Shown here: in pieces, positions 4,130-56,315 of the stretch | Position numbering within the stretch: position 1 is the first letter of the stretch | How the letters are laid out: each line of letters starts with the position of its first letter | Source of the DNA: a virus | DNA: 64,000 nt | IMG/VR virus record: IMGVR_UViG_3300043409_001561 | Direction: 5' to 3' (one strand) | Notes under the pieces: generated by a model | The model's database searches: none | Seen by the model: the letters and a program-made list of their open reading frames with translations, nothing else | What the model was told of the DNA's origin: nothing | Translations under genes and position numbers: made by a program

Positions 4130-5965
4130 TTGTATATTATTATTTATATGAGAAAATTAAACAGAGCAGAAATAAGATTTCTTAAATATTTAGATGAACA
4201 TTTAGACGATGTGTTTGATAAAACGTCAGCACTTAAAGTGTTAAGAGATGATTTAGGTTTAGATTCTAAAGAGGCGACACACTTATATAGTGTTTGGTAC
4301 TTCACCAAAGGAGATACAGATTATAGTGAGGTAGAATACGATGATGATAATAGTTTGGTATCCTTTATAAGGAAAATGAGTTCATTTAATAGTAATTCTG
4401 ATAGAGAATCGTATATGGATATGATATATGAAGATGAACGTGAGAAATTAGAGAGAATTTATGGTGAATGGATTAATATTCGTTGTGGTGAATGGAGAAG
4501 TACTGTACCATGTATTGTATGGCATAGTGATCATATCACATTAGAATTAGATTATGATGATTGGAAAGAACATTTTTCGGGATTACATGAACAAAGTTTC
4601 TATATCTATGATAAAGCGTATAGTGATTACGGTAGTGATTCTGACGAAATGAGTGAAGATGAGTTTGACTACGCATATAGTAATGATGAAACTATAGAAC
4701 TTTTTGGAGAATTAGCGTTAATCGTAGGTAAAAATACTTGGCCAGGTAAAGATAATGGGGGGATAACGGAAAAAGATATATCTAATTTTTTAGAAAGTAC
4801 TTTACCATCAGATGTATATGAATCGATAGTTAGTGATTATTTAACTGAACTAGGATATGTAGTTACAAATGCTAGAAATAAATCAACAAGAGAAACTTAC
4901 TCGAATGAAATAAAATATGACGTTAACAAATCCAGTTGTAGTACAAGTAATAATTGTATCGAAATACCATATGATGATTTAATCGAAATAATTAATGAAA
5001 ATGGTTTAGTAAATTTATCTGAATTAATGGACGCTGAAATACAACCAGACGTTGATTTAGAAAATGGTTATTACGATTCTTGGGTAGATGATGATGGTGT
5101 TGATGAAGTAATAACAGAATTTAACAGAACATTAAGAAGATCTATAGATTCAATTATAGAAGATGGTGGAATAGATATTAATGAATTAATAGAAAAAAGA
5201 GAGGGTTTTTATAAAATTATTAAAGATTTAGGTTTTGTTTTAGTATCACCAACAACAAATAAGGGTGATTGGTATAAAAGTAAGGATGATAAAATACATT
5301 TTTATATGAACGATGTAGATTTTGGGGAAGATAAGATTAAATTTACATATGAAGGTAAATCACATTTAGTTCCGATAGAAGATTTAAGTGATTGGTCACA
5401 AGGTAGTGTATTAGATTTAAATGAAAGTGTTAAATACAATAAGATTAAGTTACTGAAAGAGAATAAAGATGTAATAAATAAAATATCGATATTCGATTTT
5501 GATGGTACACTTATGGAGACACCTCATCCAGAGAAGGGTAAGTTATTTTGGGAAGAAACTACAGGTATGAAATATCCTCATATTGGGTGGTGGAGTAAAC
5601 CTGAATCTTTAGATACTAAAGTATTTAACATTAGGACTATAACCCCAACTGTTAAAGCGTATAAGAAAGAAATGGGGGATCCTAATACATTAGTCATTAT
5701 GTTAACAGGTAGGTTACCACAACAACACGATCAAGTGGAAGGTTTATTGTCCTCAAACGGTATTTACTTTGACGAGTACCATTATAAAGGTAACGGTGAT
5801 ACTTTAGGTAGTAAATTAAATACTATTAGAACATTATTAAGTAAATACCCAACAGTTGAGTCCATTGAGATGTGGGAGGATAGAGAACCTCACGCAATTG
5901 AGTTTGAGAAATGGGGTGAAGAAAATGGTGTAACTATAAAAGTTAATTTAGTTTTAAAGAAGTAA
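4130..5965 (+). CDS. large acidic protein with a C-terminal HAD-superfamily phosphatase domain (polynucleotide 3'-phosphatase-like)
   Basis: C-terminal FDFDGTL (DxDGT, HAD motif I) followed by a region of HAD-like length. The N-terminal roughly 430 aa is D/E-rich. Confidence 0.5.
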   Translation: MYIIIYMRKLNRAEIRFLKYLDEHLDDVFDKTSALKVLRDDLGLDSKEATHLYSVWYFTKGDTDYSEVEYDDDNSLVSFIRKMSSFNSNSDRESYMDMIYEDEREKLERIYGEWINIRCGEWRSTVPCIVWHSDHITLELDYDDWKEHFSGLHEQSFYIYDKAYSDYGSDSDEMSEDEFDYAYSNDETIELFGELALIVGKNTWPGKDNGGITEKDISNFLESTLPSDVYESIVSDYLTELGYVVTNARNKSTRETYSNEIKYDVNKSSCSTSNNCIEIPYDDLIEIINENGLVNLSELMDAEIQPDVDLENGYYDSWVDDDGVDEVITEFNRTLRRSIDSIIEDGGIDINELIEKREGFYKIIKDLGFVLVSPTTNKGDWYKSKDDKIHFYMNDVDFGEDKIKFTYEGKSHLVPIEDLSDWSQGSVLDLNESVKYNKIKLLKENKDVINKISIFDFDGTLMETPHPEKGKLFWEETTGMKYPHIGWWSKPESLDTKVFNIRTITPTVKAYKKEMGDPNTLVIMLTGRLPQQHDQVEGLLSSNGIYFDEYHYKGNGDTLGSKLNTIRTLLSKYPTVESIEMWEDREPHAIEFEKWGEENGVTIKVNLVLKK

Positions 5966-6312: not shown

Positions 6313-6660
6313 TTAAAATATAACAATACGTAATTTTAGTTTAAATTTTTTACATAAATCTATCATATGTTTTGTACCCTTACTCTTCCCATCCCAAAAA
6401 ATAATTGCACCATCAGCCACTTTAGCCATCTCTTCATTTCTCATATATCCCGCCCTTTTACCGTATAAATCCCACATTGCGGGGTATTCTTCTAATTTAT
6501 GATGGTTCTGGTGGGCATAATCTTCACCTAATGAATCTGCACCTTTAGCTTTTCCAGATATGATAGAAATTTCTTTCTGATTTTTTAAAAAGTAATCTAG
6601 TTTTTGTTTTAATAGTTCGTAGTCATTAAATGTCCTACTACCTGCAACTATGACTTTCAT
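6313..6660 (-). CDS. SLOG-fold / DUF2493-like nucleotide-binding protein
   Basis: MKVIVAGSR...GADSLGE...FWDGKSKGT pattern, typical of the YspA/DUF2493 phage-associated SLOG family (memory-based). Confidence 0.4.
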   Translation of the reverse strand: MKVIVAGSRTFNDYELLKQKLDYFLKNQKEISIISGKAKGADSLGEDYAHQNHHKLEEYPAMWDLYGKRAGYMRNEEMAKVADGAIIFWDGKSKGTKHMIDLCKKFKLKLRIVIF

Positions 6661-12523: not shown

Positions 12524-13018
12524 ATGGAAAAAGGAGTTTTAAATTTATTGAACGAACAAATATGGTTCGAAAATAGAGCGTCTCATTATTATTTAAACCT
12601 ATCGGTTTTATGTGAGTCAAAAGGTTTTAAAGGTATATCTAAATTTTTTAGAGAACAGTCTAATGAAGAAAGAGAACATATGTTAAAGATATGTGATTAC
12701 ATTTTAGAACGAGATGAAAAACCAATTATTCCGTCAAATACGTTTTTAGATGATAGTGATTTAGATTTCGATAACATCTTAAAGATATTTGAAGATAGTC
12801 TTTTTAACGAAAGAGAAATAACTAATTCATTTCATAAAATTATCTTAACTTGTAGAGAATTAGGGGATTTCACAACTGAAAACTTCATCCAATGGTTTAT
12901 AGAAGAACAAAGAGAAGAAGAATCTAAATTTAAGTCCTTAATTGATGAATTAAGGATTATAGGTAGTAACACCACAAGTGGGTCTGCGTTATATTTATTT
13001 GATAAAAATATTTCTTAA
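12524..13018 (+). CDS. ftnA: ferritin (bacterial FtnA-like, ferritin-like diiron fold)
   Basis: LLNEQI..E..ASHYYL and EEREHMLK motifs. The C-terminal NFIQWFIEEQREEESKFKSLIDEL parallels E. coli FtnA [24 protein letters not shown]. Confidence 0.7.
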   Translation: MEKGVLNLLNEQIWFENRASHYYLNLSVLCESKGFKGISKFFREQSNEEREHMLKICDYILERDEKPIIPSNTFLDDSDLDFDNILKIFEDSLFNEREITNSFHKIILTCRELGDFTTENFIQWFIEEQREEESKFKSLIDELRIIGSNTTSGSALYLFDKNIS

Positions 13019-18941: not shown

Positions 18942-19249
18942 TTAGTTTTTTCCTCCTCTTTATTTTTATGTCTTAATGAACCAATTGTTTCAATTACATT
19001 TAAAAATTTACCACCAAAAGTATATCCCGCAAATAAAACCATTGCATATTCTAAGGCATCTATAATGATTTGGAACTTATTTAAATCCAATGTATTTTCT
19101 TTACTAACACCCTTAAACATTAACACACCTAGTGTAATATAATATGCGATGATTGCCCACAACAGATATACTCTACTTTGAGAGTACATACCTTTTTCTG
19201 TAAGCATGTCTTTAAATATTTTCATAATTAATTTAATTTTATTACTCAT
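18938..19249 (-). CDS. small membrane protein
   Basis: Hydrophobic stretch LLWAIIAYYITLGVLMF. Confidence 0.4.
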   Translation of the reverse strand: MSNKIKLIMKIFKDMLTEKGMYSQSRVYLLWAIIAYYITLGVLMFKGVSKENTLDLNKFQIIIDALEYAMVLFAGYTFGGKFLNVIETIGSLRHKNKEEEKTN

Positions 19250-19292
19250 AAAATAAAACGTTTAAATTGTTATTATAATAAATATCTTTAAA

Positions 19293-19320
19293 AACAAAAA
19301 ACCCAACTAATGTTGGGTTT
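19293..19320 (-). terminator. rho-independent terminator (CCCAACATTAGTTGGG followed by T6)
   Basis: Hairpin plus T-run immediately downstream of the trx gene. Confidence 0.5.
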
Positions 19321-19325
19321 TGGTG

Positions 19326-19616
19326 TTATAAAATTTCTTTTATTTTACTACTTAAGACAGATTCACTGAGAACACCACTGTTCCTCCAAATCTGTTTACC
19401 CTCTTTAACTAAGACTATGGTAGGTATAGTCCTTATCTGAAATTGAGCGGCGACACTCCTATCCTCATCTATGTTAATTTTAACTACTTCAATATCACTA
19501 TTATTTTTTTTAAAACTTTCTATAATAGGATTCATCATCCTACAAGGTCCGCACCATTCTGCCCAAAAATCAATCAAAACAGGTTTTTCTGATTGTAATA
19601 TAGTTTCTAATTCCAT
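19326..19616 (-). CDS. trxA: thioredoxin
   Basis: WAEWCGPC active-site motif; 96 aa. Confidence 0.75.
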   Translation of the reverse strand: MELETILQSEKPVLIDFWAEWCGPCRMMNPIIESFKKNNSDIEVVKINIDEDRSVAAQFQIRTIPTIVLVKEGKQIWRNSGVLSESVLSSKIKEIL

Positions 19617-19653
19617 CTATAAATTTTTTTTAATTATTATTATACTATAAATA

Positions 19654-19677
19654 TAAAAGGGGAATAAAAATCCCCCT
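19654..19677 (-). terminator. rho-independent terminator (GGGGGATTTTTATTCCCC followed by TTTT)
   Basis: Hairpin plus T-run downstream of the FKBP gene. Confidence 0.45.
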
Positions 19678-19689
19678 CTGAAATAATAT

Positions 19690-20115
19690 TTATTTTACTT
19701 CTAATACCTCTACGTCAAAAATTAATTTTTTACCTGCCATAGGATGGTTGGCATCAATTTTAACACCTTCCTCATTAATTTCGGTAACAACTACGTTTAT
19801 TGTACCCTTATCTCCAGTAGATTGTAAGAAATCACCTACATTAACTCCTTCAGGTGCTTTGTCTTTAGGGATAATTGTTACTAACCCATCAAGATACTCA
19901 CCATAACCTTCTTCAGGATCAATCTCGATAGTTTTCTTATCTCCCTTATTTAGACCAACTAAACCCTTTTCAAATCCATTGATCAATGTACCCTGACCTA
20001 AAACTATATTTAAAGGTTCTCTACCTTCCGCTAAAGAAGTGTCGAATACTGTACCGTCCTCAAATCTTCCTGTGTAGTGGACTACTACACCCTTACCATT
20101 TTCTACTGTCATCAT
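19690..20115 (-). CDS. slyD: FKBP-type peptidyl-prolyl cis-trans isomerase (SlyD-like)
   Basis: VVVHYTGRFEDGTVFDTS...LINGFEKGLVGLNKGDKKTIEIDPEEGYGEY is typical of the FKBP/SlyD fold. Confidence 0.7.
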   Translation of the reverse strand: MMTVENGKGVVVHYTGRFEDGTVFDTSLAEGREPLNIVLGQGTLINGFEKGLVGLNKGDKKTIEIDPEEGYGEYLDGLVTIIPKDKAPEGVNVGDFLQSTGDKGTINVVVTEINEEGVKIDANHPMAGKKLIFDVEVLEVK

Positions 20116-20163
20116 TTTATTTTTTTTAAATTATAATGATAAAAAAATAAATAGTAAAGTATT

Positions 20164-20586
20164 TTATAATTTTATTTCGAACCTATCTTTCATTATTTGA
20201 ATTTTGTCTTCAGGAACACCATGTTCATTTATACCTTCGTGCCTATTTTCTACAATAATTGAGAACACTTTATAATCATACTGTTTTGCCAACTCATAAT
20301 AACGTTCCATTTCCCATTCTTGTGTGAATGTATTGGAAACAGCAATCTCTCTGTAGAAGTTATCGTTAATCAGTGAATCCTTCATATATGTTTCAACTGT
20401 ATCCTGACAGAATTTATGTGCGTCTTTGATTTTAGTAAAATCAAAATTATATTCTCCAGTCTCTTTATCGACAAAATATTTGTCCGCCTCACAAACTAAA
20501 AAATCGTGTACCACTAATCTTTTGGCGAATGTAGATTTACCTGAACCAGGTACTCCTCTTACTATATATAAAATTTTATCATCCAT
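20164..20586 (-). CDS. P-loop kinase, polynucleotide kinase (T4 Pnk kinase-domain)-like
   Basis: The N-terminus ILYIVRGVPGSGKSTFAKRL parallels the T4 Pnk N-terminus IILTIGCPGSGKSTWA. Small 140-aa kinase-only ORF. Confidence 0.5.
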   Translation of the reverse strand: MDDKILYIVRGVPGSGKSTFAKRLVVHDFLVCEADKYFVDKETGEYNFDFTKIKDAHKFCQDTVETYMKDSLINDNFYREIAVSNTFTQEWEMERYYELAKQYDYKVFSIIVENRHEGINEHGVPEDKIQIMKDRFEIKL

Positions 20587-20761
20587 CTTATTCTGATTTA
20601 AAGTCTTTCTTGTACTTCTATTGTTACTTCATTACCAAACTTTTTTAGTTCTTCATCTTTCTTAATAGCATTTTCAAGTAATTTCTGTAACTGTTCTTTT
20701 GTGTAGCTTGTCCAATGACTAACTACTTCTACTTTGTATATTGTTGCCATCTTATTCAGAT

Positions 20762-20989
20762 TTAAATTTGATATCCTTCAGGATATTTTGTCCGTACTTG
20801 TTGTGCATCTCCACCTTTAGATAAGGTAGATTCCCCACAACTTTTACATTTCATATTAGGAGTAACATTTGTATGAAAATAATTGTCATCATATCCTGAC
20901 ACACCTTTTTCTATATTGTTACAAAATTCACACTCATAAGTTCCCCAAAAATCTCTTCTTGATTGACTTGTAATTTCAATTAATCTCAT
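20762..20989 (-). CDS. zinc-ribbon protein
   Basis: CEFC...CKSC cysteine pairs. Confidence 0.35.
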   Translation of the reverse strand: MRLIEITSQSRRDFWGTYECEFCNNIEKGVSGYDDNYFHTNVTPNMKCKSCGESTLSKGGDAQQVRTKYPEGYQI

Positions 20990-21094
20990 TTTATTTTGAT
21001 TTAGGTAGTTTTTATTAGGATACGGCTATTGCAATAATAGCAATAAAAGTAAACCATATGACAACTACGATTATTGTTACTAAATTTGGGGTTT

Positions 21095-21277
21095 TCATCT
21101 TTTATACATCAAATAAGTTACTACTAAAATAACGATTAAAAGTAATACTGGTATCCACAATGGTGCAGTTACCCACCACCAACTCCAATCAATGTGATTA
21201 GTTAGTTTTAGAACCATAAAAATAAGGAAGAGAATCATACCTAATCCTATCCCACTTGATGAACTTTTTTCACTCAT
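21095..21277 (-). CDS. small two-transmembrane-helix protein (holin-like topology)
   Basis: Two hydrophobic helices and a basic C-terminus. Function is not established. Confidence 0.35.
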   Translation of the reverse strand: MSEKSSSSGIGLGMILFLIFMVLKLTNHIDWSWWWVTAPLWIPVLLLIVILVVTYLMYKR

Positions 21278-21295
21278 AATTTATTATTTATTTAT

Positions 21296-21952
21296 TTATA
21301 TTCTTTTTTCGTGATGATCTTTTGGTAAACATAATTTTTTAATTGGTTGATTTTTAACAATGGTTAAAATTTCATCCAAAGATAAGGGACATAAATTATT
21401 ACCATCTACACCCACATCCAATGATTTACCGTCACCCAATCTTAAATTAGTTGGTAGGTGTACGTGACCATGTAAATGTATTGTACCATCATTCATACTA
21501 TCCCACGATGCAATTGGGTAGTGCATGCAGACAAAAGAGTATTTGTCCATCAACCCCTTACTCAAAATAGATGGTCTACGAACATCTAAAAACAAATAGT
21601 CGTGTGTTGAGGAAAAAATATCTTGTATATCTTCTTTGTTTTTACGAATGTGGTGATCGTGATTCCCATAAGTTAAATGAACATTCTTACAGATTATTCT
21701 ATTACGAAATTCTTCTATTTTCTCAAATCCACCAAAACTCCAATCACCCAAATGGATCAATACATCATCTTCACCAACAACCTCATTAATATTATTCACT
21801 AATGTGTCATTCATATGATTGAGTGAATTAAACTTACGTGTTAGATTTTCTGCACCAACCCAACCAGTTGTTGCAGAACAAATATTTGCGTGATTATAAT
21901 GTGTATCACTCGTAAAAAATAACCGTTGCCCTTTTTCTAATACTAATTTCAT
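21296..21952 (-). CDS. calcineurin-like metallophosphoesterase
   Basis: SDTHYNH, GDW, GNHDHH and GHVH motifs in canonical MPP order. Confidence 0.65.
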   Translation of the reverse strand: MKLVLEKGQRLFFTSDTHYNHANICSATTGWVGAENLTRKFNSLNHMNDTLVNNINEVVGEDDVLIHLGDWSFGGFEKIEEFRNRIICKNVHLTYGNHDHHIRKNKEDIQDIFSSTHDYLFLDVRRPSILSKGLMDKYSFVCMHYPIASWDSMNDGTIHLHGHVHLPTNLRLGDGKSLDVGVDGNNLCPLSLDEILTIVKNQPIKKLCLPKDHHEKRI

Positions 21953-21956
21953 TTTA

Positions 21957-21964
21957 CAAATATA
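21957..21964 (-). promoter_or_regulatory. TAnnTTTG (-7) promoter-type element immediately upstream of 21296..21952
   Basis: The minus strand reads TATATTTG. It lies only 4 nt from the ATG, so the transcript may be leaderless or the true start may differ. Confidence 0.3.
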
Positions 21965-22022
21965 TTTATAATTTTTTAATATTCCAAACTTTTAGGTAAA
22001 AATAATAGGGTTGGTGTCTTAA

Positions 22023-22658
22023 CTAGTTATGTTTACAATTTTCATTATGGTATCTATTAACGTGTATTATTGAGACTTCTAACCCACATACAGTACAAGA
22101 TATTTTTTGGTATGGTCCTCTCGGATTTTTATGTTTACCTTTTGGTTTTTTCATTTTTTCTTTACTTTCTTCAGTGTGTTTGTACCCTTTAATTTTATTA
22201 ATAACATCCTGTGATCTCTTAGTCCCTAATAATTTTTTTCTTATCTTTTCTTTTGTTTCTTCACTTCTTGGTACACCAATACTATGTTTTGTTCTTTTTT
22301 CAATTAACTCTTTTGATTGCTTTATCCCCGTATGTGACACACTTGATTTAAGTTTAGTTTCATCGGAGGCAGCACCACTTTTATCTGTAGTTTTTGTTAA
22401 AACCAAATTTAAACCGTTATTCAATACATCATAATGTTCTTGCCAAAATCTTTCTCTATTGTTTAATTCACAAATTAAACATTCTTCAATTATTTCAAAA
22501 TTATGTTTTTCAACGCCATGACTAATTAATGATGAATATAATTTACATTGTTGTTTACATTTTAATTTTTTATAACTTTCAAATCTTCTTAAAATATCAA
22601 TTGATTGCCCTATATAGACTTTACCTGAAGGTGACGTTATTTTATATATTCCAACCAC
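22023..22658 (-). CDS. GIY-YIG homing endonuclease with a C-terminal zinc finger (free-standing, mobile)
   Basis: GIYKITSPSGKVYIGQS...RF..Y motif. Lys-rich NUMOD-like repeats. C-terminal CTVCG...HVNRYHNENC. Confidence 0.75.
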   Translation of the reverse strand: MVGIYKITSPSGKVYIGQSIDILRRFESYKKLKCKQQCKLYSSLISHGVEKHNFEIIEECLICELNNRERFWQEHYDVLNNGLNLVLTKTTDKSGAASDETKLKSSVSHTGIKQSKELIEKRTKHSIGVPRSEETKEKIRKKLLGTKRSQDVINKIKGYKHTEESKEKMKKPKGKHKNPRGPYQKISCTVCGLEVSIIHVNRYHNENCKHN

Positions 22659-22698
22659 AAAAATTATACTTTATAATAAATATAATTTTTTTTAATTT

Positions 22699-23343
22699 TT
22701 AACTTAAACTATCTGGTAAAAATAGGAGGGTCGGGTTACGTTTTTGTATATCCAAATTAGGGTATTTTTTTTTAAACTCCATATAATCAAATCTATCCGT
22801 AATTAAGTGATAACCATTTTTTGTTGGTATAATCGAATTTATCTTATCTTGAATCGGTCGACATTTAGTATTAATAAATGTTGCAACTTCTTCAACAAAA
22901 CTCTTATCTTTCGTGTCTATGTCCGCCACCCACCTCTTCTCGTGAGTTTTAATTTGACCAACAACTGAGTCAAATAAACCTTGTTGTTTATCTACACCAT
23001 CTCTAATACGTTCTGCCAGTATCGCCAACATATTAAGGGAAACATCCTTATGGTTTTGTTTCTGAACATGAATATATGCCCTCGCCTTAAACATTTCACA
23101 AAGTTGTTTAATCTCGTCATACCTCTTTTCAAGATGATCAATAGATTCTATACAGTAAGTTTTAATTGTTCTTACTGACTGATGATTATCTCTTTCCCCT
23201 TCAGGTTGATCCTTTTTACGTTTAAAAACATATAACATATAAAAATCACCTTTATCAGTGAAATGTAATAGTGTTTTTATTAATTCTATGTTATCTATCA
23301 TTATTTGTAAATTTATGTATTTTTTATTACTAAATTTAACCAA
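22699..23343 (-). CDS. hypothetical protein
   Basis: ORF track; 214 aa. Confidence 0.4.
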   Translation of the reverse strand: MVKFSNKKYINLQIMIDNIELIKTLLHFTDKGDFYMLYVFKRKKDQPEGERDNHQSVRTIKTYCIESIDHLEKRYDEIKQLCEMFKARAYIHVQKQNHKDVSLNMLAILAERIRDGVDKQQGLFDSVVGQIKTHEKRWVADIDTKDKSFVEEVATFINTKCRPIQDKINSIIPTKNGYHLITDRFDYMEFKKKYPNLDIQKRNPTLLFLPDSLS

Positions 23344-23639
23344 TCTCCAATATCTTCCATTAATTCAACCTCCCATTGTTCAATTATTTTATCCAAAATT
23401 CCTAACCCATAAGATGTTGCAACCCCATATCCTTTTTTATTACACTTATAACAACTACCACTAAATCCAATAAAATAATAGTAATCATCATCTTGTTCAA
23501 CCTTTTCTATTCCAGAGTTCAACTTCCATCTATCACTAGTTAAATATCCACCAGCCCAAGTTCCAAAAACTTTATAGTAATTGTTTGGTAGTTTTAATAC
23601 TACCCATCTTTCTGGATTTTCACTTATATTTCTTTTCAT
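23313..23639 (-). CDS. hypothetical protein
   Basis: ORF track. Confidence 0.35.
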   Translation of the reverse strand: MKRNISENPERWVVLKLPNNYYKVFGTWAGGYLTSDRWKLNSGIEKVEQDDDYYYFIGFSGSCYKCNKKGYGVATSYGLGILDKIIEQWEVELMEDIGDWLNLVIKNT

Positions 23640-24280
23640 AATTTCCTAAATTTTGGTTTTAAGGCACTCCATATAATTTTATCATAATCTTTACCATCCC
23701 ACATCGCAAACATAATTGCCTTAACGATAGAATGTTTATCTTTTATGAATTCTGCAAACTCTTTCTTAGTCGGTTCAGGATCTTTATCCCCATATTTACC
23801 AAATCTAAAATAATCGTAAGTTTTACCTAGTTGATTATAATATTGGTACCAGTGATACCCCAAACTACTGGCGTAAGTTTTAATCTTATCATAAAATTCA
23901 TCAGGAACATCTTTAAGAAAATCTTCTATTTTACCTCCACTAGATAAAATTTCCCATACAGTTGTAGTTGATATGTTTGTCATTATTTTATGTAATCTGA
24001 GATATTCTTCACCCTTTATCTTCATTCTGTCACCATTAGAAAATTTAACTACATAACCCTCTTCATTATCTTTTATTGTATTTTTTAAGGTAGTGAAATC
24101 AGTTATACCATCATATTTTTTAACTACTCTGAATCCTATATTTTGAATTAAATTTTTTAATCTTAAATCTACATCTTCACTATGTAAGTCAACTTCATTT
24201 TCGGTTTTAGTATTTATCATACCTAATAACACTAAATCCTCAAAATCATACTGTACTACTATTCTGTTTTTACCCCCCAT
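23636..24280 (-). CDS. RNA ligase C-terminal fragment (nucleotidyltransferase motifs IV and V)
   Basis: EGYVVKF (motif IV EGxVxK) and MKIKGEEY (motif V). Lies directly downstream of a GIY-YIG gene and the N-terminal fragment. Confidence 0.5.
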   Translation of the reverse strand: MGGKNRIVVQYDFEDLVLLGMINTKTENEVDLHSEDVDLRLKNLIQNIGFRVVKKYDGITDFTTLKNTIKDNEEGYVVKFSNGDRMKIKGEEYLRLHKIMTNISTTTVWEILSSGGKIEDFLKDVPDEFYDKIKTYASSLGYHWYQYYNQLGKTYDYFRFGKYGDKDPEPTKKEFAEFIKDKHSIVKAIMFAMWDGKDYDKIIWSALKPKFRKL

Positions 24281-24283
24281 AAT

Positions 24284-25096
24284 TTATTTATTTTTACAAT
24301 TATCAAAATGCCATCTATTCATAATACCAACACCACCTTCTTTATCACAATATGGACAAATTATTTTTTTACTACTTATTCCCTTAAATGGGCTACGTTT
24401 CCCTTTTTTTGATTCACTGATTTTTCTTTTAGTCTCTTCACTTTTGTTTTTACCAGGATTATTCATCGTCCATTTTTTTCTTTTAATCTCACGTGTTTCT
24501 TCACTTTGATTTTTTCCATAGTCATTACCTTTTAATTTCAAACTCAATTTTTTTTTGTGTTCTTCACTATGATAATGTTTTCCACTCTTACTATCACTAA
24601 TTTTTTTTCCTATAATTTTTGCCTTATCTTCACCAAATCTTTCTTCAAATGTTTTCCCTTTATGTAACTTTGATAAATGTTCTCCTATTGCTTTATGTCT
24701 TTTTACCCCCTTCTTTGATTCAGATATTTTTTTATTTCTATTTTTCTTATCTTCCTCACTCATATCTTCCCATCTTTTTTTTTGAGATTTTGACATTTTA
24801 TGTAAGACATTTTTAGTGAAAATTATCTCACTCCCTCTTGCGGCATTATAGTATTTTTCATCACGTATATCAATTTCTTTTAAAATCCCCTGTTCGTATT
24901 TTAAACAATCATTTTTAGAACCAAAAAATAAAATCTCACGATCCCAATTATTTTTTATATCATAAAAATCATCCCAAAATTCTTTATTATGGGAAGAAGA
25001 TACGTATCCATCATTTATATCACCTTTATGATAACCAATGTAAATTTTACCATTATTTAAATTTACCCATTTATAAACAAAAGCCTCTTTATCCAT
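24284..25096 (-). CDS. GIY-YIG homing endonuclease (inserted between the RNA ligase fragments)
   Basis: GKIYIGYHKG...GYVSSS motif. Lys-rich repeats. C-terminal CPYCDKEGGVGIMNRWHFDNC zinc finger. Confidence 0.75.
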   Translation of the reverse strand: MDKEAFVYKWVNLNNGKIYIGYHKGDINDGYVSSSHNKEFWDDFYDIKNNWDREILFFGSKNDCLKYEQGILKEIDIRDEKYYNAARGSEIIFTKNVLHKMSKSQKKRWEDMSEEDKKNRNKKISESKKGVKRHKAIGEHLSKLHKGKTFEERFGEDKAKIIGKKISDSKSGKHYHSEEHKKKLSLKLKGNDYGKNQSEETREIKRKKWTMNNPGKNKSEETKRKISESKKGKRSPFKGISSKKIICPYCDKEGGVGIMNRWHFDNCKNK

Positions 25097-25160
25097 AATT
25101 AATCATTTATATATAAATATAATGGTTATAATTAAAAACAATACTATTTTACCAATAAAC

Positions 25161-25580
25161 CTAATATATTATTTCAAATAAATAAGTATAATCTTTATGT
25201 AACTTATCGTAATCATATTTTTGTAATAAATCAAAACCCTTTATGGATTGTTCGGAAGTGAATGAACCTCTAGTCGCCAATACCCATTCATCCTTATAAT
25301 GAAATAGAATTCCTAATGAACCATCCATTTTATCATAAACGTCAAATTCAGATGTGGTAGTATGTTTACCTTCTTCCATATTAAAGAATTTTTTAAATGG
25401 TCTACCTATAATATCCCCATTAGAATTTGTTACCAAACCCCTACACATAAGTGTTACCTCATCCCATAAACCTTCATATTGAACCTTTTCAGAATAATTC
25501 CAAATAGTTAAGTCCAAAGTAGGGTGTACTTGTTTATACAATAAACCCTTATCAAAATATTCATTTAATATTTCATTCAT
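25161..25580 (-). CDS. RNA ligase N-terminal fragment (adenylyltransferase motif I)
   Basis: YDKMDGSLG matches ligase motif I (KxDGS), as in T4 Rnl1 KEDGSL. Confidence 0.55.
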   Translation of the reverse strand: MNEILNEYFDKGLLYKQVHPTLDLTIWNYSEKVQYEGLWDEVTLMCRGLVTNSNGDIIGRPFKKFFNMEEGKHTTTSEFDVYDKMDGSLGILFHYKDEWVLATRGSFTSEQSIKGFDLLQKYDYDKLHKDYTYLFEIIY

Positions 25581-25607
25581 AACGCAAATATAATATTTTT
25601 TATCTTC

Positions 25608-25871
25608 CTAATCTCTATCATTTAGTTCTGTGATTACTTTTATTCTTTGTGTAGGAACTTTTATCCATGATTTATCACATGATTTGATAGTACTAATACC
25701 ACTATCACTACTACTTACTTCAGTGCAATCCATTTCCGTTCCATCAGTGAAAACAACGTGTTGATCACATTTTTTACTATCTTCGATTATTAGATATAAA
25801 ATTATACCATATATTAGTGAAGTTACTAAAATAATAGTTAATACTTGTAAACTTTTCATTTTAATATACAT
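25608..25871 (-). CDS. small secreted/membrane protein
   Basis: N-terminal hydrophobic segment. Confidence 0.35.
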   Translation of the reverse strand: MYIKMKSLQVLTIILVTSLIYGIILYLIIEDSKKCDQHVVFTDGTEMDCTEVSSSDSGISTIKSCDKSWIKVPTQRIKVITELNDRD

Positions 25872-25880
25872 TTATTTGTG

Positions 25881-27482
25881 TTAAAGTGGTAAGGTAGTAA
25901 AATCTATTTTATTATTTTTATCTCTACTAAAGATGATATGTTGTGCCCTACCATCATTATGGATGATAACATGTGTCTGTAACCAACCACTAGGACCATT
26001 ATTATACCCAACTCTTAGTTTTGTACTCGTACCTACTGCCAATGCCCCATCTTTACGTCCTGGTGAGTGATAATGTCCTACAACAATTTTAGTATTCAAT
26101 TTACGAAATTGTTGTAAAGAACCTCTACTACCATTAGATCCAACGTCACCATGTTGCCCTAGTTCCCAATTCTTCACTTTGTAAGAATCATTTCTACCTA
26201 ATGTAATAAATTTAGGGTATCTCTCATTGATGATGTCAGGTATTACACCTTTAACGTCACTAGGATTTTCACCGTATTGTTTTAAAAGTCTGGAACTTAA
26301 ATCCATATACAATGGTGCGTTTTTAAATGTAGGTTGTTTTTTCCAATCCTCATTTTTTAACCATCTATCTACAAAGTCATCATGATTTGATCTAACTATA
26401 ACCACATTTTCAAAATCACTAAATCTATCTAGTTGATCCATCATAGTGAATATTTCTTTACCTAAATCATTAGTCCCATTCATTTCTTTACCATATTGTA
26501 CAAATGGATCTTTCATCTGGTGGTGACTTATAGAGTCTCCATCAAATACATCATGTAGAATAACATGTTTAGGGACTAAATCTACCATTAAATCAAATGT
26601 AGATTCTAATACATCTTCATCGTGATGTCCGTAGTGAAGGTCACCTAAAATTATCGCAGATACGGATGAATTTTTATTAACGACACCTTTCTCTACTCTA
26701 TTATATAAGTCTGAAAAATTACCACTCTTATCATCGGCAGTTACTTGTCTAACAAAAAACGTATCTTCATCTTTAATTTCCACAATAACAAAACCAAAAG
26801 TATGATGGAATTCACCTTTCTTACCTGATTTAGAATCAGTGTAATTCTTTTTAGTTATTGATCCTGTCGTTAACATCATCTTAGGTTTTTGTTTAACTAA
26901 AACAGGTATTGTCTCCATATGTACCTTTGGTGAACCAAAAATACAAGAATTAATTCCACTCAAACCTTGTAATCCTGTCATAGGATCGACTGCGGTTGGT
27001 TGTATTTTAACATCTGATAGAATAGAAACATATTTATGTATGTCATGTCTATTAGCATCTAAGTACTTAACTATCTTACTATCCCAAAATTCGTTATTTT
27101 CTTGATTACTAGTCCATACAGATGTCGGATTTTTATATCTACCCGCAATAACATGTATATCTGCTCCCAAATGATTTGCGTAAGCCTCCATATTGGTGAG
27201 TAATCCGTTATGGACAGGTGTATTATTTTGTGCCCAAGTAATTAAAAATATCTTTTTATCTTTATCATACTTTTTTAATTTGGCAGCCTCAAATTGTTCC
27301 GACTCTTTATCTACTTTCTCTTTGAAATTAAATTTCTCCGAACACCATTTTCTTATAGTCCTTTCCGATCTATCGAAATACTCAATTAGAATTGACATTC
27401 TCTCATCCCACTTTAAGTTTTTGTCAGTGTAGATGGAATAAGCATGTTCTATGTCTTTTTCTGTTACATCTTTAAATTTCAT
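25881..27482 (-). CDS. large metallophosphoesterase-domain protein
   Basis: GDLHYGHHD, SNHDDF and GHYHSPG motifs (calcineurin-like). The N-terminal roughly 250 aa is of unknown function. Confidence 0.55.
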   Translation of the reverse strand: MKFKDVTEKDIEHAYSIYTDKNLKWDERMSILIEYFDRSERTIRKWCSEKFNFKEKVDKESEQFEAAKLKKYDKDKKIFLITWAQNNTPVHNGLLTNMEAYANHLGADIHVIAGRYKNPTSVWTSNQENNEFWDSKIVKYLDANRHDIHKYVSILSDVKIQPTAVDPMTGLQGLSGINSCIFGSPKVHMETIPVLVKQKPKMMLTTGSITKKNYTDSKSGKKGEFHHTFGFVIVEIKDEDTFFVRQVTADDKSGNFSDLYNRVEKGVVNKNSSVSAIILGDLHYGHHDEDVLESTFDLMVDLVPKHVILHDVFDGDSISHHQMKDPFVQYGKEMNGTNDLGKEIFTMMDQLDRFSDFENVVIVRSNHDDFVDRWLKNEDWKKQPTFKNAPLYMDLSSRLLKQYGENPSDVKGVIPDIINERYPKFITLGRNDSYKVKNWELGQHGDVGSNGSRGSLQQFRKLNTKIVVGHYHSPGRKDGALAVGTSTKLRVGYNNGPSGWLQTHVIIHNDGRAQHIIFSRDKNNKIDFTTLPL

Positions 27483-27529
27483 AATGTTTTTTTTTAAATT
27501 TAATGATAATTTTTATTAAAATCAATAGT

Positions 27530-28267
27530 TTATAATTCGTTAGTAGGTTTCAACCACATTCCTTTTGAGAATACTAAATCCAAAAATCCAGGTATGTAAG
27601 ATTCTTCAACGGTATGAAGTAATCTTAAAGATAGTGGAGTATTATGTTTCATCATCTTAAAGATTTCTTCTCTCATTCTTTCAACTGAAACAGTTGTTTT
27701 TAATTTCTCTAAGATTTCAGGTTGAGCCATCGCGTCCCATATTTTTAAACTAATCGTAAATCCTTTTGTTACTGAGAATCTTAAAGCTCTCAATATTCTC
27801 AACGGATCATCCATCATTGTTATTTCTGGGTTTAATGGAGTTCTCAAAATTCCATCTTCAAGATCCTTGAGTCCACCAAATAAATCAATTAGATTCCCAT
27901 TTTCATCTTCCGCCATCGAATTCAATGTGAAATCTCTTCTAATTAGATCATCTTCTAATGTACCTAATTCTAAAATAGGTTGTCTAGTCCCTTCTTTGTA
28001 ACCGATCTCTTTTCTTGCGAGAACAAAGTCCGCAACTAATCCTTCGTTAACATCACCTTTAGGAAATTTAGCTCTGATAGTGAACATCTCTGGAGTAGAA
28101 AGGAATATAGTAAACTCTTTATGTTCCATCCATTGTTTCATTATTTCGAAACCTTCATCTACTGTTCTATCTATGTTGTCGAGTACAAATGTGAAGTCAA
28201 TATCTTTAGATTCAACACCTAAGATACTATCTCTTACACAACCACCAACTTTATATATCTGAGGCAT
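27530..28267 (-). CDS. cca: CCA-adding tRNA nucleotidyltransferase (minimal head/neck type)
   Basis: VGGCVRDSILG...KDIDF, RRDFTLNSMA and DPLRILRALRF are the class-II CCA/poly(A) polymerase head-domain motifs. Confidence 0.75.
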   Translation of the reverse strand: MPQIYKVGGCVRDSILGVESKDIDFTFVLDNIDRTVDEGFEIMKQWMEHKEFTIFLSTPEMFTIRAKFPKGDVNEGLVADFVLARKEIGYKEGTRQPILELGTLEDDLIRRDFTLNSMAEDENGNLIDLFGGLKDLEDGILRTPLNPEITMMDDPLRILRALRFSVTKGFTISLKIWDAMAQPEILEKLKTTVSVERMREEIFKMMKHNTPLSLRLLHTVEESYIPGFLDLVFSKGMWLKPTNEL

Positions 28268-28269
28268 AA

Positions 28270-28506
28270 CTATTCAGGTAATAATCCAACTCTCTCAATG
28301 AGATTCCAAACTCTTTCTTTGTATTGATCAACTGTTTCATCACCAATTTCAGTTATTCCACGATCAGTCATTTCAGATAGATAATCTAAAAGTTCTCTAG
28401 TAACTTTATCGATATCTTCGATAGATAGTTCACCTCTCTTAACTCCGTTTTTTAGGATTTGGTACTTTACCATAACCATTTTAGAAACTTTTACACCCAT
28501 AGTCAT
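28270..28506 (-). CDS. hypothetical protein
   Basis: ORF track. Confidence 0.4.
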   Translation of the reverse strand: MTMGVKVSKMVMVKYQILKNGVKRGELSIEDIDKVTRELLDYLSEMTDRGITEIGDETVDQYKERVWNLIERVGLLPE

Positions 28507-28750
28507 TTGTTTTATTTTATCAAAGATATAAATAATATTTCAATCTGCCAAATTTTTTGGTTATTTATATTGGTTATAAATAAGGTGATAGTGATGGAGT
28601 ACCCGTCTCGCTCCAATCTTAAGTGCTTAATCGTAGTTTTACGAGGCCTCGGCACTGTCCTTTTCAGGGGGTGATGAATTCCTGATCCACTCTGGATTGT
28701 CGACATCCGTTGAGTGGGGAAAACCACTATCAGTATTTTAATTGTTTATG

Positions 28751-28824
28751 TGGTCCTTGTTGGAATCGAACCAACCACCTACGGTTTATGAGACCGCCGC
28801 TCTAACCGAATGAGCTAAAGGACC
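28751..28824 (-). tRNA. tRNA-Met/Ile2 (anticodon CAT)
   Basis: Manual fold: acceptor GGTCCTT/AAGGACC, D-arm GCTC..GAGC, anticodon loop CTCATAA, T-loop TTCGATT. Confidence 0.7.
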
Positions 28825-38009: not shown

Positions 38010-38698
38010 AGAAATACTATTTCATTAGTAAACATATCCCATTCTACATTAACGGGTTTATTTCTGAACTCATATCTACCATTAAGAACTGCCGCATTTA
38101 TATAGTGAGTGTTACCGTCAAACACATAACCATAACCTTCATGAATATGCCCAAATATATGTATTTTAGGTTTCATATCCTCCACAACTTTTAATAGTTC
38201 TTCACAACCAACATTTACATTATCATAATAAACATAATCTAATTTACCGTATGGTGGACCATGTGTAATAAGTATATCAGTATCTTTAGGAATCATATCC
38301 CATTTTTCTTTTATCTTTTCACCTCTAGGTAGATTAAATGCCCAATTATGGAACTCTGGTTGCCAAGGTGAACCATAAATAACTAATTGTTGATCTTCTT
38401 CATCGTACAGATCCAATCTTTCGTCTTGAAGATATTCAATAGTTTTATATCCTGTTAATAAACCTCTGACTTTATCGTTATCATCTTGAAACCCAAAATC
38501 ATGATTACCCGCAATAAATACTTTGGTATCATAATTATCTATTTCATCAAACCACTTCATAAAGTTTTCAATCTCTGTTATATACCCTCTACTAGTGATG
38601 TCACCACCACAAATAAGTAAATCACCACCAGGAAGAAAATCTTTTATCTGTAAATGTTTGGTGTGTGTATCACTAATAAATGTAATTTTCTTTTTCAT
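38006..38698 (-). CDS. calcineurin-like metallophosphoesterase
   Basis: SDTHTKH, GGDITSRG, GNHDFG and GHIHEGYG motifs. Confidence 0.65.
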   Translation of the reverse strand: MKKKITFISDTHTKHLQIKDFLPGGDLLICGGDITSRGYITEIENFMKWFDEIDNYDTKVFIAGNHDFGFQDDNDKVRGLLTGYKTIEYLQDERLDLYDEEDQQLVIYGSPWQPEFHNWAFNLPRGEKIKEKWDMIPKDTDILITHGPPYGKLDYVYYDNVNVGCEELLKVVEDMKPKIHIFGHIHEGYGYVFDGNTHYINAAVLNGRYEFRNKPVNVEWDMFTNEIVFL

Positions 38699-40718: not shown

Positions 40719-41519
40719 TTAAATTGGTAATTTTACTTTACTTAACATTTGATTTGAAACATGAGTATATATTTCAGTAGTTTTAACATTACTGTGACCC
40801 GCAATTTTTTGGATTAAACGAAGATCCGTTCCTGATTCTAAAAGATTTGTAAAACAAGAATGTCTTAATTGGTGGATGTGATATTGTTCACCTAAATATT
40901 TTTTAACAATCTTATTACAACTATTTGAACTATATTGTAAAGAATTTTGTCCGTTAAACAAATATTCTTTTGGTTTATACTGGATGAAATAATTTCTTAA
41001 TAACTCTAAAACAGTTTGAGAAAGTGGGACAATTCTATCCTTTCTACCTTTGGCGTTTTTAATATGTATTAACATCCTTTTTGAATCAATATCACCTATT
41101 TTAAGGTTAACTACTTCTGAAACTCTTAACCCAACCGAATATGTTATTGTAAGTATTGTTTTATGTTTTATATTTTCAATTTTTGATAATTGTTCTTTTA
41201 TAAATTCCCCATCAATAACAACTGGTAATTTCTTTTCGGATTTTGGTCTTTTAAAACTCACTTTATCGTATTTCTTGTTTAAACCAAATTTATATAAAAA
41301 CCTAATGGCGTTTATGACTTGGTTTTGTTGTGATACCGATGTGAAGTTATATTTATCCAAATAAGATTGGAAATCGTTAGAATTACAATGCACTATTTGT
41401 TTACCACCTAAACTATACAAGAAAGGTTTTATATGAGATAGATAGTTATCTTTAGTTCTAGGTGAATAGTTTAGGTATATAAACTTTTCTTCACAAATCT
41501 TTATAATTTTATTATTCAA
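40719..41519 (-). CDS. tyrosine site-specific recombinase/integrase (XerC/D-like)
   Basis: GLRVSEVVNLKIGDID, HQLRHSCFT and GHSNVKTTEIYTHV give the R..HxxR..Y catalytic signature. Confidence 0.75.
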   Translation of the reverse strand: MNNKIIKICEEKFIYLNYSPRTKDNYLSHIKPFLYSLGGKQIVHCNSNDFQSYLDKYNFTSVSQQNQVINAIRFLYKFGLNKKYDKVSFKRPKSEKKLPVVIDGEFIKEQLSKIENIKHKTILTITYSVGLRVSEVVNLKIGDIDSKRMLIHIKNAKGRKDRIVPLSQTVLELLRNYFIQYKPKEYLFNGQNSLQYSSNSCNKIVKKYLGEQYHIHQLRHSCFTNLLESGTDLRLIQKIAGHSNVKTTEIYTHVSNQMLSKVKLPI

Positions 41520-51723: not shown

Positions 51724-51847
51724 ATTATTACTATAAAAAATAAAACCCCCCTAATTATCTTAAGGGGGTTTTTAAAGGGCCGATAGGATCACTATCAACT
51801 TCCACCACTTTGTTTTTAAGGTACAAAGAACCTAGCGTGGAGATGGA

Positions 51848-52235
51848 GGGAGTCGAACCCTCGTCCAATCAAATTGCCATTAAAAATTCATTCACAAGCT
51901 TAGTTCATTTTTCTTAATGAACAAAATATTTGGTTTTATTTATAACATGGTTACCAACAACCCTGTTTCGATAATTGTTTAGAGAGTTTTACCGTCAACT
52001 CTATTTTTTACACCTTTCTGTTTCTAGGTAAGTGTGACCCACCGATTAAACTAATTCCATTAATTCAATCTCTTCAACCACCGCTGAGCGAGTGATAGAA
52101 GTTGGGATACTCATCATATCCTCTGTGTTGTATGCGTTTGCATTTATATTTTGATAGGTGTTTAAGGGTTTCCATCTAACCCTGCTTGCATCATTTCAAA
52201 CTCAACCTTTGACTGTCAAATCCAAAACCATCCCC
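51848..52235 (-). ncRNA. ssrA: candidate tmRNA (ssrA)
   Basis: The minus strand begins GGGGATGGTTTTGGATTTGACAG (compare E. coli GGGGCTGATTCTGGATTCGACGG). It ends GGACGAGGGTTCGACTCCCTCCATCTCCA, a tRNA-like T-arm plus acceptor whose 3' CATCTCC pairs with the 5' GGAGATG. The tag reading frame is not confidently identified. Confidence 0.55.
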
Positions 52236-56310: not shown

Positions 56311-56315
56311 AATAA

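Follow-up and report, generated by a model that had tools for sequence, protein, structure and literature searches.

What does a group of genes for a polynucleotide kinase, a phosphoesterase, an RNA ligase, and a CCA-adding enzyme do within 9 kb of a phage genome, and do these genes belong together? We address this question for positions 19,293 to 28,506 of a 64,000-nucleotide (nt) stretch of IMG/VR virus record IMGVR_UViG_3300043409_001561 (the whole stretch is called the window below), which has a G+C content of 29.7%, carries nearly all of its genes on the minus strand, and looks like a portion of a large phage genome rich in tRNA genes. Nucleases that cleave tRNAs are a widespread last line of antiphage defense, and phage enzymes that heal and then seal the cut ends are the known answer to them. 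An initial annotation had proposed a four-gene module for tRNA repair in this region, and all four genes are present in the list of open reading frames (ORFs) at exactly the coordinates it gave (20164..20586, 21296..21952, 23636..25580 as a split gene, and 27530..28267), all on the minus strand. We observe that the kinase, phosphoesterase, and ligase genes recur together in related phages, and we consider it probable that the region is a conserved phage cassette for RNA end healing and end sealing (heal-and-seal), the RNAs mended being most likely those cut by host defenses.

Linkage of the kinase, phosphoesterase, and ligase genes

Gene neighborhoods were compared in two sets, one of 80 kinase-centered loci with up to 10 kb of flanking DNA per side and one of 80 ligase-centered IMG/VR loci with up to 8 kb per side. 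Around the kinase, the phosphoesterase is found in 52 of 80 loci, the ligase in 32, and a conserved 200-amino-acid (aa) protein in 21, with genes for the CCA enzyme, a cREC domain protein, a SAK-family HAD phosphatase (SAK-HAD), and an MPPED2-like metallophosphoesterase each found in 14 or 15. Around the ligase, the corresponding counts are 64/80 for the phosphoesterase, 46/80 for the kinase, 33/80 for the 200-aa protein, 25/80 for cREC, and 16/80 for the CCA enzyme. Dereplication by clustering the kinases at 90% identity gave 36 lineages, from uncultivated phages, among which the kinase has a phosphoesterase gene within 3 kb in 20, a ligase gene in 14, and at least one of the two in 23. The trio occurs in at least 13 gene orders (for example, M-K-L, L-K, K-M, and L-u-M-K). 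Control neighbors (thioredoxin, FKBP, and A1-like genes) stay within 3 kb of the kinase in only 0 to 2 of the 36 lineages, and because they are not retained, plain synteny is ruled out as the source of the pattern. Furthermore, among cultured phages, an Rnl1-type ligase gene lies beside the annotated Pnk gene of Arthrobacter phage Bauer and about 1.5 kb from that of Tenacibaculum phage pT24.

Gene fusions join the same activities. Members of the kinase family are fused to RNA_lig_T4_1 (P0342, P0353), HD (P0312, P0313), and CNPase (P0297) domains, all of which are end-healing or end-sealing modules, and the 737-aa profile phrog_8238 matches the kinase with its N terminus and both halves of the ligase with its C terminus.

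The grouping of kinase, phosphoesterase, and ligase is more than chance. That the four genes are unrelated accessory genes lying together by accident is very improbable, and for the trio this explanation is already contradicted by an adjacency that is conserved in shuffled order and by the natural fusions. It draws what plausibility it has from the mosaic character of the region, where mobile endonucleases and small ORFs vary between sister phages, and from the CCA enzyme and A1-like genes, which are linked in close relatives only: of the 36 lineages, 5 have the CCA enzyme within 10 kb of the kinase and 1 has the A1-like gene near it. SAK-HAD is near the kinase in 11 lineages. The proposed module is upheld for the trio and loosened for the CCA enzyme, which is only loosely linked to it.

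A stand-alone Pnk-type kinase

The product of 20164..20586 (minus strand, 140 aa) had been likened to T4 polynucleotide kinase (Pnk), and the fold comparison agrees. Pfam AAA_33 (E = 7.8e-10), phrog_2071 (E = 6e-38), and phrog_505 "polynucleotide kinase" (E = 8e-8) match the protein, and a Foldseek search with its AlphaFold (AF2) model (pLDDT 82) returned T4 Pnk and C. thermocellum Pnkp as the top 17 matches, at template modeling (TM) scores of about 0.65. The best chains are T4 Pnk 1ly1 (E = 7.5e-5, TM 0.65) and CthPnkp 4jt2/4gp7. Nucleoside monophosphate and adenylate kinases score lower against the same model (TM 0.44 to 0.52), so the protein does not group with the dNMP or adenylate kinases. 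We therefore read it as a predicted RNA 5'-OH kinase, a reading that depends on the modeled structure together with the Pfam and PHROG matches.

The P-loop (G11 to T19, at 20530-20556) is a plain one in the window kinase, with no stop insertion, and K17, S18, D35, and R115 are invariant in the family, Asp35 aligning with Asp35 of T4 Pnk. The protein consists of the kinase domain only, the fused C-terminal HAD (DxDxT) 3'-phosphatase domain being absent, and most members of the family are likewise stand-alone. The family is large, with 7051 proteins at 90% clustering and 9646 representatives at E up to 0.001 in a library clustered at 50%. Genes for thioredoxin and an FKBP isomerase lie directly downstream of the kinase gene.

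A separate observation concerns the kinase genes of related phages. In 11 of 135 kinase matches in the fetched loci, an in-frame stop and one further codon interrupt the P-loop (RG[VL]P-stop-x-GSGK). Scanning IMG/VR with the pattern AGR GGN NTN CCN TRA NNN GGN NNN GGN AAR NNN AC yielded 50 stretches comprising 35 unique sequences, where a rough estimate expects about 1 chance match, and once the six nucleotides are deleted, each of the 35 translates as a P-loop kinase of one of at least three families over the stretch examined (up to about 130 codons). In its broad form, the arrangement is RG[VLI]P-stop-x-GxGK[ST] in Walker A; examples are L027:8605-8670, L042:9986-10051, L051:9983-10048, L058:1140-1205, L158:6590-6655, L241, L251, and L275 (L numbers denote IMG/VR contigs). 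In every stop-bearing kinase gene, an N-terminal extension contributes the 5' arm of a hairpin, the 3' arm of which consists of the R-G-[VLI]-P codons and ends 1 to 3 nt before the stop. Folding of each sequence alongside controls gave a mean energy of -23.5 kcal/mol, compared with -4.1 for uninterrupted kinase genes and -8.0 when the 5' part was shuffled, and compensatory changes are seen at several hairpin pairs. Both TAA and TGA serve as the stop, which is almost always followed by CCN, CUN, or UCA. Stop-codon reassignment was considered and rejected, given that both stops are used and that the coding density under the standard code is 0.895 in loci with the interruption and 0.884 in plain loci. 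The interruption is a candidate for a natural +6 ribosome hop or readthrough device; if peptidyl-tRNA-Pro hopped past the stop by six nucleotides, a canonical Walker A would result. Short hops have been described only as low-level, nonprogrammed events (bioRxiv 10.1101/2022.08.31.505936), and a literature search found no report of such a P-loop stop.

An aq_1665-type phosphoesterase and its 200-aa partner

The protein encoded at 21296..21952 (minus strand, 218 aa) is a complete binuclear metallophosphoesterase (Pfam Metallophos, E = 6.7e-5; phrog_547, E = 3e-42), in whose family all five metallophosphoesterase motifs are invariant (SDTH, GD, GNHD, H144, and GHVH). The initial annotation had taken it for a calcineurin-like phosphoesterase of the kind that serves as the 2',3'-phosphatase of bacterial Pnkp. 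The enzyme class stands; the assignment to the lambda-phosphatase/Pnkp type finds no support, as the family profile reaches a single PDB entry, Aquifex aq_1665 (1xm7, E = 6.5e-9), a structural-genomics protein of unascribed function. The protein shares a superfamily with the Pnkp 2',3'-phosphatase, for which the healing chemistry is described (PMC3675462, PMC2190708). Since it does not appear to be of the lambda-phosphatase/Pnkp type and its sole solved relative is aq_1665, its predicted role as a 2',3'-cyclic phosphodiesterase and 3'-phosphatase rests on gene context.

A frequent fourth member of the cassette, missed by the initial annotation, is the 200-aa protein encoded at 22699..23301 (minus strand), whose real start is the ATG at 23301. 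Its gene is repeatedly wedged among the kinase, phosphoesterase, and ligase genes, and the family has more than 6500 members, with the top matches at 76 to 100% identity; a lookup of the contig record encoding the exact protein found none. Invariant DxD (127/129) and TKNGxH (165) motifs are present, no Pfam domain was matched, and the protein may be an AEP-like nucleotidyltransferase.

A two-piece Rnl1-type RNA ligase

The initial annotation had recognized an ATP-dependent RNA ligase with motifs I, IV, and V in the split gene, and this holds, with motif III found in addition. The N-terminal piece (25161..25580, minus strand, 139 aa) matches Pfam RNA_lig_T4_1 at 44.1 bits (cut-off 28.3) and phrog_562, the T4 Rnl1 family, over profile positions 21 to 165, and the C-terminal piece (23636..24280, minus strand, 214 aa), which starts with a cassette-borne MGGK, continues the same profile over positions 167 to 366, so that the two pieces meet at 165/167. 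Joined, they align colinearly with the T4 Rnl1 structure 2c5u (E = 2e-11), gap-free at the junction. Motif I (KMDGS, with Lys84) lies at 25317-25331 and motif III (LFEIIY) at 25164-25181, directly before the stop codon, while motif IV (EGYVV) lies at 24047-24061 and motif V (MKIKG) at 24011-24025. The Rnl1-specific CRG and KKFFN (KFF) elements also align with T4 Rnl1, where the Rnl1-specific upstream residues are Arg54, Lys75, and Phe77, and all of these motifs and elements are kept in every split allele. By profile and alignment, the pieces are those of a bona fide Rnl1-type nucleotidyltransferase. The alignment stops at T4 residue 292 of 375, and the last 80 or so residues, in the region of the C-terminal helical domain for tRNA specificity, are conserved within the phage clade only. 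The N-terminal polypeptide carries motifs I and III and the C-terminal one motifs IV and V, so that neither can be active by itself.

The ligase here is not one polypeptide: its reading frame stops after motif III, is followed by an endonuclease gene, and resumes at a new ATG. The intervening gene, HEG2 (24284..25096, minus strand, 813 nt), encodes a GIY-YIG/NUMOD3 homing endonuclease by Pfam and PHROG, is separated from the stop of the N-terminal piece by an AT-rich spacer of 64 nt (25097..25160, minus strand), and ends with a stop codon 3 nt before the ATG of the C-terminal piece. A group I intron around HEG2 was considered and rejected, as Rfam gave no intron at E up to 1 in 19000-31000 and noncoding flanks of only 64 and 3 nt leave no room for an intron core. 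A second, free-standing GIY-YIG/NUMOD3 endonuclease gene, HEG1 (22023..22658, minus strand; Pfam and PHROG), is a mobile insertion and no working part of the repair module.

Comparison with IMG/VR contigs of the same species, namely L003 and the pair L004 (IMGVR_UViG_3300043570_002173) and L005, which share 97.5 to 98.5% nucleotide identity with the window, reveals three presence/absence differences in the window, at 22014-22678, 24269-25164, and 20600-20987. L004 and L005 lack both endonuclease genes as well as two small ORFs; HEG1 is also absent from L006; and L003 has HEG1 and the small ORFs and lacks the endonuclease that splits the ligase. Across L003 to L006, HEG2 is absent and the ligase is uninterrupted, reading "...LFEIIF-SN-NRIVV" or "...LFEIIY-DD-NRIVV," and the ligase is unsplit in 80 of 80 ligase-centered loci. 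The split in the window is a recent GIY-YIG insertion, since sister contigs at such high DNA identity keep the intact gene.

The same split is found in L050 and L161 to L171, which represent at least four further lineages, with HEG2 homologues at the same ligase position that are 62 to 67% identical to that of the window. Their junctions are identical ("...LFEIIY*" and "MGG[KQ]NRIVV"), and all catalytic residues are kept. L161, L166, and L171 share a near-identical endonuclease, flanked on each side by some 40 near-identical codons, while the rest of the ligase is divergent, a pattern typical of homing with co-conversion. For the window itself, co-conversion as the reason for the lower identity of its ligase to those of the sister contigs is unsupported, as the junction flanks are native, as in L003 and L004. 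The element is mobile, targets the coding sequence of motif III, and brings its own stop and start codons. In L161 and L166, an extra ORF of 71 to 79 aa also separates the endonuclease gene from the C-terminal ligase piece, the gene order being kinase, ligase N-terminal piece, endonuclease, small ORF, ligase C-terminal piece, cREC.

Because the element moves horizontally, intact halves are no proof of function; they may simply be young, and there is some chance, which we judge to be minor, that the ligase of the window phage is inactive. The cassette would then be real and crippled here, the insertion having inactivated the ligase and left young, undecayed pseudogene fragments. We regard this as unlikely, albeit the most serious of the alternatives. 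In its favor, the insertion is recent and absent from the sister contigs, none of the 80 ligase-centered loci is split, and the pattern in L161, L166, and L171 speaks for horizontal homing and not for prolonged vertical retention. Against it, every case shows a stop immediately after motif III and, immediately before NRIVV, an in-frame ATG-GG[KQ], this junction design spans endonucleases diverged to 62 to 67% identity and at least five ligase backgrounds, and all halves retain every catalytic residue. That the stop/start design is kept across diverged endonuclease lineages argues that the C-terminal piece is meant for translation, and there is a functional precedent in Aeh1 NrdA (PMC3045599), an endonuclease-split enzyme whose pieces assemble by way of element-derived residues.

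CCA enzyme and tRNA genes

The gene at 27530..28267 (minus strand, 245 aa) had been called a CCA-adding enzyme, and its predicted product is indeed a class II tRNA nucleotidyltransferase by Pfam, PHROG, and PDB matches, in a short version with head and neck only. Support comes from the Pfam PolyA_pol head (E = 1e-20), phrog_24229 tRNA nucleotidyltransferase (E = 2.5e-60), class II CCA- and A-adding enzymes in the PDB (E = 2e-25 to 1e-17), and the presence of motifs A to E (GGCVRD, DID, RRDFT, DDPLR, and ERMREE). The body and tail domains are absent, with alignments covering residues 4 to 220 where the solved homologues have 390 to 580 aa, and the best PDB matches span CCA-adding, A-adding/CC-adding, and poly(A) polymerase kinds.

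Immediately upstream of this gene lies the first of two tRNA clusters (28750..30467, minus strand), with 6 genes, most of which lack an encoded CCA. ARAGORN finds 27 tRNAs and one tmRNA in the window, and about 23 of the 27 tRNA genes have no encoded CCA, so that maturing the phage's own tRNAs is no less likely a task for the CCA enzyme than repair. A broader alternative is that the whole set carries out routine maturation of phage tRNAs or tRNA-like transcripts (trimming, CCA addition, and perhaps removal of insertions) rather than damage repair. The missing CCA ends, the CCA-enzyme gene abutting a tRNA cluster, and odd tRNA-like genes with insertions in the anticodon region (30934-31059 and 31373-31472) would fit such a role. 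We nevertheless hold it to be improbable, as a splicing endonuclease was not found and the cassette lies away from tRNA genes and the CCA enzyme in most related phages.

Three tRNA-like genes with aberrant middles, at 30934-31059, 31373-31472, and 28985-29059 (all on the minus strand), share an acceptor stem and T arm (AGTCAGG...GGTTCGAATCCTGTCCTGACTA). The first, of 126 nt, scores 39 bits with the Rfam tRNA model and is called by ARAGORN as a tRNA-Leu with a 44-nt insertion; the second, of 100 nt, is called by neither program; the third is a weak "tRNA-Val." The first two have 25 to 50 extra nucleotides in the anticodon region, and more such pairs occur in the sister contig L088. It is conceivable, at long odds, that the trio is also the joining half of a protein-catalyzed cut-and-rejoin pathway for these two insertion-bearing genes and their paralogues in sister phages. 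If so, a bacteriophage would be splicing tRNAs in the heal-and-seal manner of eukaryotes and archaea, by means of a disaggregated Trl1/Pnkp-like set with a two-polypeptide ligase. The tmRNA (51835-52235, minus strand; Rfam 112 bits, E = 6e-43) has an unusually long tag peptide by ARAGORN.

Other repair-related genes and genome context

Further candidate repair genes lie elsewhere in the window. A stand-alone SAK-family HAD phosphatase (36425..36982, minus strand; HAD_SAK_2, E = 2.3e-23, 83.5 bits against a cut-off of 27.5) is a candidate 3'/2'-phosphomonoesterase, and a HAD_SAK_1 domain (44.7 bits, cut-off 25.6) occupies residues 482 to 598 of the plus-strand product within 4130-5965. HAD domains had been noted at both places and compared with the phosphatase domain of T4 Pnk; the domains are there, and they belong to SAK RNA-repair families, not to the T4 Pnk type. 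The gene at 37255..37704 (minus strand), overlooked before, encodes a cREC protein, a predicted cyclic-phosphate-processing receiver domain (cREC_REC, E = 2.9e-20, 73.2 bits, cut-off 27), and in L161 to L170 the cREC gene is directly downstream of the C-terminal ligase piece. Iyer et al. (PMC7824862) propose that cREC opens 2',3'-cyclic ends and that SAK-HAD removes the resulting monophosphate.

Two additional metallophosphoesterases reported earlier were also recovered. The first is a T5 A1-like "DNA transfer protein" of 533 aa (25881..27482, minus strand; phrog_1745, E = 6e-151), which is outside the repair cassette though inside the region. The second is an MPPED2-like enzyme (38006..38698, minus strand; Metallophos, E = 4e-18), which strikingly resembles mammalian MPPED2 (PDB 3rl4, E = 3.9e-47 over 211 residues) and is encoded beside the cREC and SAK-HAD genes. 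Neither is probably a healing enzyme; the MPPED2-like enzyme may act on cyclic nucleotides, and its membership in the repair set is uncertain.

With respect to its relatives, a megablast search of the 9-kb region against 50,697 phage records gave no match to a close cultured relative, and the nearest ligases are 32 to 37% identical to that of the window. No terminator-like hairpin was found on the minus strand between 28.5 and 19.7 kb, and a sigma-70 promoter scan was uninformative, with 58 sites against 59 expected. Accessory genes (6313-6660, 12524-13018 on the plus strand, 19326-20115, 40719-41519, 55405-57224, and 57892-58887) include those for a YAcAr SLOG protein, a tyrosine recombinase, two DNA methyltransferases, a full-length DnaJ, and a ferritin, the last on the plus strand at 12524-13018. 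A 471-aa protein (60686-62101, minus strand) carries the Pfam domains DUF2828 (E = 5e-34) and DUF7788 (E = 9e-52), which we presume to be related to the Ro60/TROVE-vWA proteins that accompany RNA repair systems.

Proposed mechanism

On the heal-and-seal reading, RNAs cut by host ribotoxins such as anticodon nucleases would carry a 2',3'-cyclic phosphate at one broken end and a 5'-OH at the other. Phosphorylation of the 5'-OH would fall to the 140-aa Pnk-type kinase, and the aq_1665-type phosphoesterase would open and remove the 2',3'-cyclic phosphate, perhaps with assistance from cREC and SAK-HAD, whose genes lie 12 kb away. The Rnl1-type ligase, reassembled from its two polypeptides, would then join the 3'-OH to the 5'-phosphate, and the short CCA enzyme would complete or restore the 3' ends of phage tRNAs. 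Identities, catalytic motifs, closest fold, linkage, fusions, and the recent split of the ligase are observed; from them we infer the substrates, the order of reactions, the activity of the two-piece ligase, and a role in counterdefense.

Besides the youth of the ligase halves discussed above, several points speak against this proposal. The PDB matches of the kinase by sequence are weak: a search with the family profile gives the NAD kinase AvrRxo1 as the best match (E = 0.01), with further matches to T4 Pnk (E = 0.055) and Pnkp1 (E = 0.08). The kinase also has an invariant Phe where T4 Pnk has the substrate-binding Arg38. The phosphoesterase is without a characterized close relative, and its family profile finds no Pnkp or lambda-phosphatase chain in the PDB at E up to 1. 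In addition, the genes for the CCA enzyme, cREC, and the HAD proteins do not directly adjoin the cassette in this phage.

Another explanation is that the substrates of the kinase and phosphoesterase are small nucleotide signals or NAD-derived molecules, so that host immune messengers would be degraded or modified, with the ligase as an independent neighbor. The AvrRxo1 match fits this explanation, as does the presence of an MPPED2-like phosphodiesterase and a YAcAr SLOG protein in the window, and phage calcineurin-like enzymes have been proposed to target cyclic nucleotides (PMC7824862). The kinase fold is, however, closest to polynucleotide kinases, the kinase family is fused to Rnl1, HD, and CNPase domains, and linkage to the ligase survives many rearrangements. 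We therefore give small-molecule signaling little credence and retain the heal-and-seal reading, in which the trio acts on RNA ends.

Comparison with known systems

The T4 Pnk and Rnl1 pathway counters the PrrC anticodon nuclease, and T4 Pnkp plus Rnl1 shares with the present cassette the Rnl1 ligase family, a kinase fold that is closest to the T4 Pnk kinase domain, and the logic of healing both ends before sealing. The present system differs in that the kinase stands alone at 140 aa without the fused HAD domain, 3' healing is assigned to a separate metallophosphoesterase, and the ligase comes as two polypeptides. Bacterial Pnkp of the Pnkp-Hen1 system (PMC3675462, PMC2190708) combines the same three chemistries and superfamilies, namely, a P-loop Pnk kinase, a binuclear metallophosphoesterase, and an ATP-dependent ligase, in one polypeptide, whereas here they are encoded by three separate genes in an order that varies across phages, the phosphoesterase is of the aq_1665 type instead of lambda-phosphatase-like, and the ligase is of the Rnl1 type. 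A Hen1 methyltransferase was not found among the roughly 70 window ORFs scanned against Pfam, where the only methylases are the two acting on DNA. Because the defining features fail, the cassette is a member of neither T4 Pnkp nor bacterial Pnkp; its enzyme composition resembles a disaggregated bacterial Pnkp, and it would work like T4 Pnkp plus Rnl1.

The closest overall inventory is the toolkit of jumbo phages described by Iyer et al. (2021, PMC7824862), whose laboratory also defined the SAK-HAD and cREC families. That toolkit comprises Rnl1, polynucleotide kinase, SAK-type HAD, and cREC, together with occasional calcineurin-like phosphatases, a CCA-adding enzyme, many tRNAs, and T5 A1 orthologues, and all of these items are present in the window. 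The trio of kinase, aq_1665-type phosphoesterase, and Rnl1, its 200-aa partner, and the split Rnl1 are not described in the portions of that survey considered here. The HD-Pnk/ligase/Tpt1 cluster of Runella slithyformis (Bacteroidota, PMC6097658) likewise groups a healing enzyme with an ATP-dependent ligase, and some members of the present kinase family are also HD-fused. It differs in that the Runella HD domain is N terminal to the kinase and the ligase is of another type, with its substrate unascribed (PMC6097658), and no Tpt1 was found in the window.

These comparisons do not overturn current understanding; they extend a catalogue drawn from comparative genomics. The three-gene version is compact and very widespread, with thousands of metagenome homologues, and its minimal 140-aa kinase and uncharacterized phosphoesterase clade provide a testable function for aq_1665-type enzymes and for the unannotated 200-aa family.

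The split of the ligase has precedents in Aeh1 nrdA/mobE (PMC3045599) and T4 genes 39/60 (PMC2988022), where a free-standing endonuclease gene likewise lies inside an enzyme gene. As in those cases, intact alleles exist in relatives and the element supplies the stop, the start, and the junction residues; unlike in Aeh1 nrdA and T4 39/60, the target here is an RNA ligase. To our knowledge, no split RNA ligase has been reported. If active, the two-piece Rnl1 would be a natural split RNA ligase and a further case in which a mobile element mends the very gene that it has disrupted.

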